From the sequence record LC799789.1: a DNA stretch of 64,000 bases. One strand, written 5' to 3'. Below are positions 60,501 through 64,000 of the stretch, piece by piece; position 1 is the stretch's first letter; each line of letters opens with the position of its first letter. Position numbers: made by a program. This stretch comes from a plasmid.

Positions 60501-63500
60501 CGATTATGTCCAATCCGAATTTCCTGAGCAGCTGCAAGTACATGACTTCAGCAAATATTTGTTTCCAAGTCGAAAATTAGCAGATACGCCTTTGACCCGA
60601 CAAAGCCTTTGGCGGATCATTCATGAAGCAGGAACAGCGGTTGGTTTAAAAGAAATTGGTCCCCATTCGATGCGCAAGACCTTCGGCTATTTTTTGTACA
60701 AGCAAGGGACCAAAACAGAGATCATTCAGTCGCTGCTCAACCATTCTTCGCAACGGGAGACCTTACGCTATATTGGGATCACCCAGGAAGATAAAGATAC
60801 CGCAGTAAAGAGTTTGGATCTGTGACAGAATAATGCCCTATATAATAGAAGAAAAAATTCAAGAGGGGAGAAGATGAACGAAGAAAAGCGTCCGAAATTT
60901 CCTGATAAATACCACTTATCTCGCAAAGAGTCTGTGTATTTATTGAAGAAAAACATTGTGGAACTGGTGTATAATGCGGGAAAATTTGAAGGGTTAAATA
61001 CAACGCTATTACAAACAGAAGAGATTATCAAGTATAATCGAGCTAATAATATGGCGGTAGATGATGTCCTGACCGTCGTTAACTTAAAAAGAGGCTTTGA
61101 AATGCTTTTAAACGACTTACAGGAGCCCCTAATAGAGACAAGTAAGCGGATTAATCGGATCGTTGCAGCAGAGGATGCGCTTTTTTCCGGTGAAATACGA
61201 ACTGGTGGGGTAGAAGTATCGACGATTCAAGGAAGATATGTGCCACCAATGTTAACTGAAGACGAGGTAAACAATCAATATGGTGAGATAATGAATAAAG
61301 AGATATCAGATACGGAAAAAGCCCTGCGACTGTTTCTATTCATTTAATGCAATAGGAGCGGGTATTTGTAATGCTTCCCATAGTGCCACCCCATTTTTGA
61401 AATCAATTTCCCACGTTTCTTCGTTCTCGCCATTCTTTGGGAGAAGCTCAAGAGATGGCGGAGTAAAATCAAATTCGCTTTTCATTATATTAATTGTCTA
61501 ACTTAATTTGACAATTAATATTATTTATACAGCACAAGTGAGAAATATATTGAACAGTTGAAACAAATACAAAACGATTTGTACGGTAACATTGAGAAAG
61601 AATATTTTGATAGTCAAATGTTCCAACAAAATTCTAGCCCCTATTATTCTGAAGAACGTTTTTTTCAATTAATGGAACAGGAGGAAGAAAAAAGACTACT
61701 TCAATTAATGAAAGAAATGGAAGAACAACAAGTAGCGGAAGAAATAGAAGAGAAACGGTTTATTAAATTAATAGAAGAGCAAATGGAAATAGAAAGTTTA
61801 AGAGAACAAGAAGAAGAGTAAGTTCTGCGTTTGTTAGAAACATAATATCTTTGAAAACAATTTAGACAAACGACAGGAAATGGTAATTTGAAAACTAAAC
61901 ATTGATAATTACTTATTGCACTTAATATGGTAGAATTGCATTAACTGTAAAGAGAGGGTGATGCCTAAATGATGACAACACAAGATTTAATGGACAAGTA
62001 CGAAGTATCACGACAAACTGTAAACAATTGGGTTCGGAAAAACGAAATTCCTGCACCCACAGTAAAAAAAGGGCATCAGAATGCTTGGACATTTAGTCAA
62101 GCGGAACTTATTGACAAAAAATTGAAGCATAGTCACAGCGAACAATTGGAGTTGTTTAAAACTGAATCGACTCCTCTTCATATCAATAATAGAAGATATT
62201 TAGGCAGTAAACAGAAAATACTAGATTTTATCAATGATGTTGTTTCGGAACACACCAAAAATGTTAAGTCAGTTGCTGATGTTTTTGGTGGAACAGGTGT
62301 TGTTGCTAATTTATTTAACAAGCAAGGCAAAAAAGTCATAGTTAACGATATTCTTACAAGCAACTACATTTCTTATGAAACATGGTTCGGGAATATGCCC
62401 GTAGATGAAAAAAAGATTCAGTTCAAAATTGAAGAACTGAATTCTCTTGAAGGTATACATGGATATGTTGATAAAAATTTTGGTAATAAATATTTTTCAG
62501 TTGAAAACGCACAAAAAATTGATGCAGTCCGTGAAAAGATCGAGACTTACAACGATTTAAACGAACGTGAGAAAGCATTTTTGTTAACGTCTTTGCTATA
62601 TGCTATGGATAAGGTGGCTAACACAGTAGGACATTTTGATGCATATCGGAAAAAAATGGATACCTTTAAACCTATTTATTTACGAGTTCCCGAATTCAAT
62701 AAAAATGTTGGAAATGAAATTTACAATGAAGATGCTAATCAGCTAGTTAGAAAAATTAAAACAGACCTTGTTTACATTGATACACCTTATAATTCTCGGG
62801 GCTATGAAAGTGCTTATCATGTTTTAGAAAACGTTATGGAATGGAAAAAGCCGGACGTTGAGGGAGTGGCAATGAAAGCGGTCAACCGCTCTGAAAAATC
62901 TTCGGACTATACTAAATCTAAAGCACCCCAAGCATTTGATGATTTGATTCAAAATATTAACGCTCGATATATTTTAGTTTCGTACAATAATATGGCGAAA
63001 AAAGGAAATTCACGTTCAAACGCAAAGATTTCAAATGAAGAAATTATTGCCACATTGAAGAAACGTGGGCAGGTAGAAGTTTTTTCAATTGATTTTAATG
63101 CTTTTACAACGGGCAAGTCGAATATAGAAAATCATAAAGAATTACTGTATCTTTGCACAGTTGATGATGAAATAATTCAATCGCCACTGAATTATACGGG
63201 CGGGAAACAAAAATTGATTCCACAATTACGACCATATTTTCCTTCAAGGTATACACGATTGATTGACTTATTTTCTGGTGGTGGTAGCGTTACTGCAAAT
63301 CTGGCAAAAAATGGACAAGCAGAAAGTTATCTTATGAATGATGTTGAAAATCATGTGATTAATTTTTTTGAGTATATTTCAACTATTGATATAGATGATT
63401 TCATTAACCAAGCGGAAATGAAAATAAGTGAATATGGGTTATCTAATACGAAAAAAAATGGATATGAATTCTATTCTGCGAATAGTGCTAGTGGTTTAGG

Positions 63501-64000
63501 TGCATACAATAAAGAAAAATTTCTGAAGCTAAGGAAAGATTATAATAATTCACCGTCACCATTGCTATTTTACTTGTTAGTTGTTTTCGGTTTTAATAAT
63601 CAGATTCGCTTTAATTCAAAGGGTGAATATAATCTTCCAGTTGGTAAACGAGACTTTAACAAAAAGATGGAGGAAAAATTACGTAAGTTTGTAAAAGTAA
63701 TACAGGACTCACCAATTGAATATTCCACCAAAGATTTCCGAGAAGTGAGTATAGACACAGGAGATTTCATCTATGCTGATCCGCCGTATCTTATTACGAC
63801 GGCAGCTTACAATGAAAATGGTGGTTGGTCTGAAAAAGATGAAAAAGACTTATACGATTATCTAGATAAAGCAAATGAAAATAATATTAAGTTTGCTCTT
63901 TCAAATGTGATAATTCATAACGGAAGAGAAAATGAAATCCTTAAAAGTTGGGCTTCAAAATATAATTTGTACGTCTTAAACTATAATTACAATAATAGCA

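Follow-up and report, generated by a model that had tools for sequence, protein, structure and literature searches.

The Pfam-level name "AlwI family" spans restriction endonucleases (REases) that recognize GGATC (AlwI), GAGTC (PleI, MlyI, and BstNBI), or GCATC (SfaNI-like) (PMC9799307). For the SfaNI system of Enterococcus faecalis NEB215, a position beside ccrAB recombinases on a mobile element has been reported (PMC6222049), and M.SfaNI has been described as a single gene with two methylase domains (PMC9799307). In Staphylococcus xylosus TMW 2.1324, a 2127-bp methyltransferase (MTase) gene lies by a 2121-bp gene for an AlwI-family REase; in Escherichia coli, this MTase methylates both GATGC and GCATC and blocks SfaNI (PMC10030836). 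MTases of Mycoplasma bovis PG45 and Mycoplasma agalactiae have been assigned to GCATC/GATGC (PMC9465063). Both species are among those with fused or paired "DNA adenine-Dam" MTases beside AlwI-family REases (PMC12898733), and the motif-typed MTases are presumably the products of those REase-adjoining genes. Here, we analyzed a 64,000-nucleotide stretch of plasmid DNA (record LC799789.1, hereafter called the window), at the end of which a long reading frame for a putative two-domain adenine methylase starts at position 61969 on the plus strand and runs off the sequence. We estimate a probability of roughly 75% that the product of this frame is the modification enzyme in a Type IIS restriction-modification (R-M) operon of the SfaNI/AlwI family carried by the plasmid.

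A fused double methylase and its partner endonuclease

The first-pass annotation of the window had pointed out an uninterrupted frame of at least 677 codons. The frame proved real, being stop-free over 677 codons on the plus strand (positions 61969 to 64000), and it is absent from the open reading frame (ORF) list for the sole reason that it has no end within the window. At the base composition of the window (34.5% GC; stop probability of 0.077 per codon), stops are expected about every 13 codons, and a stop-free run of 677 codons would arise by chance with a probability of ~3.5e-24. The start codon at 61969 is also the start of the RefSeq coding sequence in plasmids identical to the window. 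One such plasmid places the end of the gene 71 nucleotides (nt) beyond the window, giving a protein of 700 amino acids (aa) of which 23 residues and the stop codon are missing here. The second domain is thus complete within the window save for its extreme C terminus. The parts of the protein encoded in the window are the following.

61969 to 62157, plus strand: winged helix-turn-helix, aa 1 to 63 (helices at residues 4 to 11 and 15 to 23, beta-hairpin at 32 to 40, long helix at 42 to 63), from Pfam and AlphaFold
62158 to 63177, plus strand: first D12-class N6-adenine methyltransferase domain, aa 64 to 403 (PF02086, E of 2e-34)
62278 to 62304, plus strand: S-adenosylmethionine (AdoMet) motif DVFGGTG of the first domain
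62779 to 62790, plus strand: catalytic DTPY of the first domain
63178 to 64000, plus strand: second, T4-Dam-like D12 domain, aa 404 to 677 of 700, truncated at position 64000 (TIGR00571, T4 Dam)
63265 to 63291, plus strand: AdoMet motif DLFSGGG of the second domain
63589 to 63651, plus strand: hairpin GFNNQIRFNSKGEYNLPVGKR of the second domain
63778 to 63789, plus strand: catalytic DPPY of the second domain

The four motifs on which the claim of two Dam-like domains had been based were all present, in the order given: DVFGGTGVV (aa 104) and DTPY (aa 271) in the first domain, and DLFSGGGSV (aa 433) and DPPY (aa 604) in the second. In both halves, FxGxG precedes the catalytic (D/N)PP(Y/F), which is the order of the alpha group; the DTPY that stands in place of DPPY in the first domain is invariant among homologs. 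When the halves were scanned separately, they matched PF02086 (MethyltransfD12) with E values of 2e-34 and 8e-37, each over nearly the whole 253-position model (positions 1 to 247 for the first domain). The C-terminal half passed NCBIfam TIGR00571 ("dam") with 149 bits against a cutoff of 114.85. No match to that model was obtained with the N-terminal methylase domain, and a search for a solved structure related to this domain by sequence returned none. The second domain matched the structures of T4 Dam (1yfj, E of 1e-56), DpnM (5e-19), and EcoDam (5e-11). It is ~55% identical to phage T4 Dam, and its DNA-reading hairpin is invariant in 18 homologs.

The N-terminal helix-turn-helix (HTH) of the first-pass annotation was recovered as a match to Pfam HTH_17 on aa 1 to 48, with an E value of 4e-7 for the whole protein and 1e-8 for the N terminus alone. 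An AlphaFold model of the N terminus, with a predicted local distance difference test (pLDDT) score of ~90 over aa 1 to 50, consists of a helix-turn-helix followed by a beta-hairpin wing and then a long helix. Its nearest solved folds in Foldseek are DNA binders of the MerR/Xis type (CadR, RacA, pSK1 Par, GlnR, excisionases, and BldC), with weak E values (0.01 or higher) and probabilities of up to 1.0. The N-terminal 60 to 70 residues are kept in more than 100 homologs (54 to 80% identity) at 99 to 100% coverage, and no substitution of R15, Q16, T17, W21, or P30 was seen in 37 homologs. Judged from its sequence, the product is one 700-aa chain made of a MerR/Xis-like winged helix and two complete alpha-class (D12) N6-adenine MTase domains.

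A Type IIS R-M system opened by a fused double D12 methylase had been expected to continue beyond position 64000, and an endonuclease gene was looked for there. The window is base-for-base identical to the Enterococcus faecium vanA plasmid pEF0656-2 (L001) over positions 59125 to 64000 (4876 nt). In that plasmid, the TAA stop of the methylase gene runs into the ATG of its downstream neighbor (TAATG), a gene for a 651-aa AlwI-family REase (L001:14272-16227). The protein matches Pfam RE_AlwI (PF09491) with an E value of 1e-30 over positions 2 to 438 of 441, and it matches the PADLOC REase_II model PDLC03557 (648 positions) over its full length with 1024 bits; the remaining PADLOC REase_II models match its catalytic region only, with 45 bits or less. 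The RefSeq names of the two proteins (WP_010731569.1 and WP_010731568.1) are already correct at the family level, the partner being labeled "AlwI family." Residues 428 to 577 of the REase align with residues 376 to 527 of N.BspD6I (E of 3e-9), and D516, E529 (in LEVT), and E542 line up with the PD...EVT...E of this nickase. We take the aligned positions to be catalytic, as in the BstNBI/BspD6I enzymes. The REase is predicted to have a single PD-(D/E)XK-type site, located in its C-terminal half. By this arrangement, the methylase gene, first, and the REase gene, second, form one operon, and they are probably translationally coupled, since the methylase stop overlaps the REase start codon.

A megablast search with positions 61800 to 64000 returned seven Enterococcus plasmids, all at least 99.4% identical. 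The carriers are resistance plasmids (vanA, erm(B), and fexA) from E. faecium, E. faecalis, E. hirae, and E. gallinarum. Two observations weigh against a functional operon in the window. First, the REase gene itself would lie outside the window, and it is the identical plasmids that lead us to expect it there. Second, two plasmids of Japanese E. faecium, pJHP9_3 and pJHP10_3, have a methylase region 100% identical to the window and a REase split into two ORFs by internal stops (L094:5272-7226 and L092:7013-8968, respectively). The stops are brought in by three short scrambled segments (REase nt 561 to 574, 719 to 727, and 747 to 792), and unless these are assembly artifacts, both plasmids would be left with an orphan methylase. 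In the replicon of the window, too, the REase might be inactivated and the methylase effectively an orphan, which could shield the plasmid on entry into hosts with SfaNI-type restriction or act epigenetically. Several shortened members of the REase cluster would be in keeping with such a state, as would M. agalactiae strains that have a GATGC MTase and no recognizable REase (PMC9465063). However, the exact match of the window is longer to pEF0656-2, in which the REase is intact, than to pJHP10_3 (4876 versus 2755 nt), and the methylase/REase pair is intact in the other five of the seven plasmids as well as in a chromosomal integrase/Rep element (L003). The orphan methylase that the first-pass annotation had named as a possible refutation is thus found in two carriers, and we consider it unlikely for the window.

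Pairing with an AlwI-family REase extends beyond enterococci. A genome scan yielded 44 loci from other species with both methylase domains. A REase of this family lay within 4 kb of both domains as a full-length match in 32/44 and as a catalytic-domain match only in 6/44; the other 6/44 had none. The two methylase domains are fused in some lineages and encoded by separate adjacent genes in others. The separate-gene layout was seen in many lineages (L027 to L045, from Clostridia, Bacillaceae, Mycoplasmopsis, Methanobrevibacter, and others). We also noted at least two REase clades (~650 and ~700 aa; ~36% identical) paired with methylases whose DNA-reading hairpin is invariant.

A conserved element in the methylase leader

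In 28 distinct HTH-bearing loci, the regions upstream of the methylase gene were unalignable except for one element that follows an extended -10 box and precedes the start codon. Its consensus is [A/T]GTAAA(A), 8 variable nt, GATGC, 3 to 4 nt, and G[A/T]TGC. The distance between the first box and the first GATGC does not vary (14 nt), and the element is always on the coding strand. The leader in the window is organized as follows.

61928 to 61936, plus strand: probable promoter, extended -10 box TGgTAGAAT, from sequence reading and the conserved position in related leaders
61944 to 61952, plus strand: upstream half of the leader element, ACTGTAAAG (family consensus [A/T]GTAAA(A))
61952 to 61958, plus strand: ribosome-binding site (RBS) GAGAGGG, inside the spacer of the element, from sequence reading
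61960 to 61972, plus strand: downstream half of the leader element, GATGC (61960 to 61964), CTA, and the degenerate repeat AATGA, which overlaps the start codon

A generic sigma-70 scan gave weak alternatives only and missed the extended -10 box; because of these weak matches, the putative promoter was assigned by sequence reading and conservation, a TG-n-TAnAAT box being found at the equivalent place in related loci.

The element goes together with the HTH. A relaxed form of the tandem repeat was found in 33/35 HTH-bearing loci and 0/6 HTH-less loci, against a background of 0.27% of 106-nt windows, and a strict form in 23/35 and 0/6, respectively (background of 0.014% of 106-nt windows). Likewise, [AT]GTAAA-N8-G[AT]TGC was present in 25 of the 28 distinct HTH-bearing loci and in none of nine HTH-less loci. 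In a scan of 350 nt upstream, which also gave these last counts, the tandem repeat was still absent from the HTH-less loci. The association between HTH and element had a Fisher p value of 6e-6.

We propose that the leader element probably serves the fused HTH as an autoregulatory operator and that it contains the putative target site of the system itself. Two points tell against this proposal. The loci are related, so the p value is optimistic; and in two HTH-bearing loci (L019 and L021), both repeats read GTTGC, so adenine methylation cannot be indispensable to the operator everywhere. The element might instead be an RNA-level signal, acting in translation initiation or through 5' untranslated region structure, or a binding site of the MTase domains. 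In the closest relatives, it spans the RBS and the start codon, and GATGC, as the presumed catalytic target, would be bound by the MTase domains anyway. However, in Bacillaceae and several streptococci the element lies 15 to 30 nt upstream of a separate RBS and ATG, arguing that it is not merely a translation signal. The leader gave no Rfam match, and its predicted RNA fold was no better than those of shuffled sequences (z of +0.69). Finally, the element is missing from all HTH-less loci despite the same catalytic domains. An RNA signal or an MTase-domain site is therefore rather unlikely, and an operator bound by the HTH is the reading we prefer.

Autorepression by MTases with an HTH is established for M.EcoRII, M.SsoII, M.Ecl18kI, M.ScrFIA, and M.MspI, and promoter control through methylation of the cognate site is established for CfrBI and LlaDII (PMC3874152). 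Acting together, the HTH and the tandem GATGC-N3-GATGC might be an autoregulatory switch that senses methylation and has been kept from Enterococcus to Bacillaceae and Clostridia, an idea that we regard as less likely than not. The combination of HTH and leader element may represent a regulatory variant; within the literature searched, we found no description of it for N6-methyladenine (m6A) Type IIS systems.

The likely recognition site

A link to a published specificity came from an Enterococcus pair made up of a 695-aa methylase (P0140) and a 648-aa RE_AlwI protein (P0013), which are 72.9% and 68.2% identical, respectively, to the window-type methylase and REase. Identity is even along both proteins, including the recognition half of the REase. 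In 8/8 contexts, the pair adjoins 545-aa and 457-aa serine recombinases of the ccrA/ccrB type. An SfaNI-type GCATC/GATGC specificity is likely, since it is favored by this context, by the S. xylosus and Mycoplasma relatives, by the match to PADLOC PDLC03557, and by the leader, where GATGC is conserved and GGATC/GATCC is never present. All loci of the P0140/P0013 type (L084 to L091, on Enterococcus chromosomes or contigs) lie directly against ccrB/ccrA-like serine recombinases; in some strains, the pair is part of a defense island that also includes an ApaLI-like REase with its N6_N4 MTase neighbor, McrBC, and a Type I system.

Several points weigh against the SfaNI-type assignment. That the P0140/P0013 pair is SfaNI itself is putative, an identification made from the genomic context and from the submitter-style UniRef name of one cluster member ("Restriction endonuclease, A0A0A0U8P1_ENTFL"). 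The k-mer statistics were uninformative on specificity, as GCATC/GATGC was not avoided in the window or in two plasmids (62 observed versus 57 expected), and neither was GGATC/GATCC (79 versus 61). Moreover, the hairpin of the C-terminal domain keeps the equivalents of EcoDam K9, Y119, N120, R124, and P134, whose roles have been described (PMC4417163). Together with the likeness to T4 Dam, the kept residues that read G1 and C4 would suit a GATC-containing site, e.g., GGATC of AlwI, at least equally well. In Dam, however, the reading of base pair 1 is the contact conserved least, and the ancestral specificity was probably ATC (PMC4417163).

The system could thus be a true AlwI isoschizomer, recognizing GGATC (4/5) with domains that make GG(m6A)TC and G(m6A)TCC. 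In addition to the strong T4-Dam/DpnM likeness of the C-terminal domain, M.AlwI, M.EacI, and M.GmeI also consist of two fused MTase domains beside AlwI-type REases (PMC3526280, PMC4081073), and RefSeq labels the partner accordingly. However, the label "AlwI family" also covers GAGTC and GCATC enzymes (PMC9799307), the experimentally typed Staphylococcus and Mycoplasma relatives are specific for GCATC, and the close Enterococcus relative fits the published SfaNI context. The leader sequence and the short reach of the PADLOC REase_II models other than PDLC03557 also argue against GGATC, which we consider quite improbable. The typed GGATC enzyme M.GmeI of Geobacter was not among the 80 loci of the genome scan, and no staphylococcal name appeared in a homology search with a 705-aa Bacillaceae REase as the query, in which the S. 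xylosus REase was looked for. A GAGTC specificity (PleI/MlyI/BstNBI) was considered and rejected: the N-terminal recognition part of the REase has no similarity to N.BspD6I, and GAGTC-type systems use a single GASTC MTase (PMC4081073), which counts against this reading.

For an SfaNI-type site, the two domains can be provisionally assigned to strands by analogy. An IS1-truncated version of the S. xylosus gene under a strong upstream promoter retained methylation of GATGC only (PMC10030836), suggesting that the N-terminal domain acts on the GATGC strand and the Dam-like C-terminal domain on the GCATC strand. The latter assignment is supported by MhoVII, whose C-terminal D12/Dam-like domain makes C(m6A)TC (PMC12898733).

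Finally, a LlaI-like system, in which a fused FokI-type double methylase is followed by McrBC-like restriction subunits, shares the fused double D12 architecture and has a practically negligible chance of being correct, as every related locus read had a single RE_AlwI-family REase after the methylase, followed by an IS element (IS3, IS30, or IS1216 in the matching plasmids) or an unrelated gene; no McrBC-like genes adjoined the pair in those plasmids or in the chromosomal element; and the recurrence of the REase pairing across plasmids and species supports the Type IIS reading instead.

Genomic surroundings of the operon

Three further features lie upstream of the operon.

59179 to 59865, minus strand: IS1216 (IS6 family) transposase, left bound of the module (Pfam DDE_Tnp_IS240, E of 9e-42; annotated as IS1216 in L001 and L002)
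60226 to 60825, plus strand: small tyrosine recombinase, 199 aa (Pfam Phage_integrase, E of 6e-26)
61519 to 61821, plus strand: left boundary of the R-M cassette in common with the chromosomal copy (DNA homology to L003 from ~61519)

The left edge of the cassette was placed at ~61519 because homology with the chromosomal element starts there. A Glu-rich 87-aa ORF at 61558 to 61821 is the 3' remnant of a 415-aa gene; it matches aa 316 to 415 of the product of L003:4601-5848 (98%), and in the chromosomal element an intact copy of the 415-aa gene precedes the same R-M pair. The tyrosine recombinase, which the first-pass annotation had already recognized, is found beside the R-M pair in 7/7 matching plasmids. 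The "Fic-like fragment" at 60874 to 61347 did not hold up, as it gave no Pfam match even at an E value of 10. This plus-strand ORF of 157 aa, kept beside the tyrosine recombinase in the matching plasmids, has a faint local similarity of 26 residues (FSGEIRT...) to a Fic protein.

A second defense region at this end of the window had also been proposed, and further defense genes do lie upstream of the R-M module, making this end of the window rich in defense functions. At 53591 to 55623 on the plus strand, a Thoeris pair consists of a 470-aa ThsA (SIR2_2 plus SLOG-type STALD, E of 1e-69) directly followed, with a stop/start overlap, by a 206-aa TIR protein of the ThsB type. At 56911 to 58951 on the minus strand, overlapping ORFs of 260 and 438 aa correspond to the N- and C-terminal parts of the PADLOC candidate PDC-M49A (681-position model, E of 2e-136 and 3e-210). 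This gene is apparently split by a frameshift near 58169 to 58227, and two small unannotated ORFs follow it (56285 to 56930). Positions 44000 to 61000 are 93 to 96% identical to backbones of conjugative plasmids from Enterococcus, Ligilactobacillus, and Vagococcus, with VirD4-like, TrbL-like, and LPXTG proteins and a Type I R-M system among the parts matched. As these 17 kb match such backbones, the window appears to be a segment of a mosaic conjugative plasmid or integrative and conjugative element rather than one of the seven 45- to 57-kb plasmids that carry the R-M module.

Discussion

The data can be accommodated in a model in which the system, like SfaNI, recognizes the asymmetric site 5'-GCATC-3'/5'-GATGC-3'. 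The N-terminal domain would make G(m6A)TGC and the T4-Dam-like C-terminal domain, with the "ATC-reading" residues of Dam, GC(m6A)TC, so that both strands of every host site would be marked. A REase monomer would bind an unmethylated site through its large N-terminal recognition region, dimerize transiently through its single PD-(D/E)XK domain (D516, E529, and E542), and cut the two strands a few bases away, on one side only (5/9 for SfaNI), so that phage or plasmid DNA entering the cell would be destroyed. Strand-wise marking, monomer binding, a transient dimer, and an offset cut are all known from the family (PMC3017599, PMC4081073). The R-M pair would double as a plasmid addiction module, providing post-segregational stabilization.

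Regulation might proceed as follows. Once the enzyme accumulates, its fused HTH would bind the element between the -10 box and the start codon and autorepress the operon. As the element contains the system's own target, the methylation state of this operator may tune repression. In the more speculative switch version of this model, the unmethylated operator in a naive host would permit a burst of operon expression; when the operator becomes methylated along with the genome, HTH binding would be reset, and with it the expression of the MTase and the cotranslated REase. Such a switch would combine, in a Type IIS m6A system, the autorepression of HTH-MTases with the methylation of cognate sites in promoters.

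Plasmid-borne R-M systems of this kind are well known in enterococci, and the proteins are already annotated; in this respect, the finding is an ordinary one. If the system works, a GCATC-specific barrier combined with an addiction module would shape the entry of plasmids and phages into clinical strains, and premethylation of DNA with the methylase gene should then bypass the barrier to transformation, as in S. xylosus. Wider interest is confined to the HTH-linked leader element, which would offer a simple model for the establishment control of a single-operon Type IIS system.

The system is almost certainly a Type IIS R-M system of the SfaNI/AlwI family, of the kind in which the double adenine methylase is a fusion. 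FokI and StsI, which the first-pass annotation had named for comparison, give way to this family by virtue of the AlwI-family partner nuclease. SfaNI itself (E. faecalis NEB215, GCATC 5/9; Furmanek-Blaszk and Sektas 2015, as related in PMC9799307 and PMC6222049) has the same enterococcal host, the same carriage on a mobile element, and the same order of a single two-domain adenine-MTase gene and one REase gene. The pair found in the SfaNI context (P0140/P0013) has the same HTH and the same leader element as the window system. In contrast to SfaNI, the window system is a distinct allele or paralog, and its type is located on plasmid modules that are bounded by IS1216 and include a small tyrosine recombinase, or on an integrase/Rep element, rather than in a ccrAB cassette. 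The S. xylosus system (JGY90_00145/00150; PMC10030836), compared by its description, has the same arrangement of a ~708-aa MTase with two recognition domains beside an AlwI-family REase; this 706-aa REase probably belongs to the second clade, which is ~36% identical to the window type.

AlwI (GGATC 4/5), EacI, and GmeI (PMC4081073, PMC3526280) share the Pfam family of the REase and the two adenine MTases in one chain, one for each strand. AlwI is a Class I Type IIS enzyme with one catalytic site per chain and cleavage by a transient dimer (PMC3017599), as predicted for the window system, whose specificity differs in probably being GCATC and not GGATC. With N.BspD6I and with the REase_II models other than PDLC03557, the window-type REase has the catalytic region alone in common. 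The methylases of FokI and StsI, and LlaI, have the same tandem alpha-class (D12) domains, each acting on one strand of an asymmetric site, whereas the window-type partner nuclease is of the AlwI family and neither FokI-like nor McrBC-like; we found no sequence evidence for a specific kinship with M.FokI. MhoVII of Mycoplasma hominis (GATG/CATC; PMC12898733) is likewise a fused two-domain adenine MTase with a Dam-like C-terminal domain, but its N-terminal domain is of the beta-class YhdJ type, its REase is not of the AlwI family, and its site has 4 bp.

For regulation, the closest precedents are M.SsoII, M.Ecl18kI, M.EcoRII, M.MspI, and M.ScrFIA (PMC3874152, PMC3978073, PMC2760811), which have the same kind of N-terminal HTH of ~60 to 70 aa on an MTase. 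In these HTH-MTases and in CfrBI and LlaDII, as in the window system, a conserved element with cognate sites inside lies over the MTase promoter or leader. The HTH-MTase precedents methylate cytosine at C5 and come from Type IIP systems, where the operators are palindromic, whereas the window system has a double m6A MTase of Type IIS, and the binding and regulation predicted here from sequence would involve an HTH with a MerR/Xis-like fold and an element that is a direct repeat.

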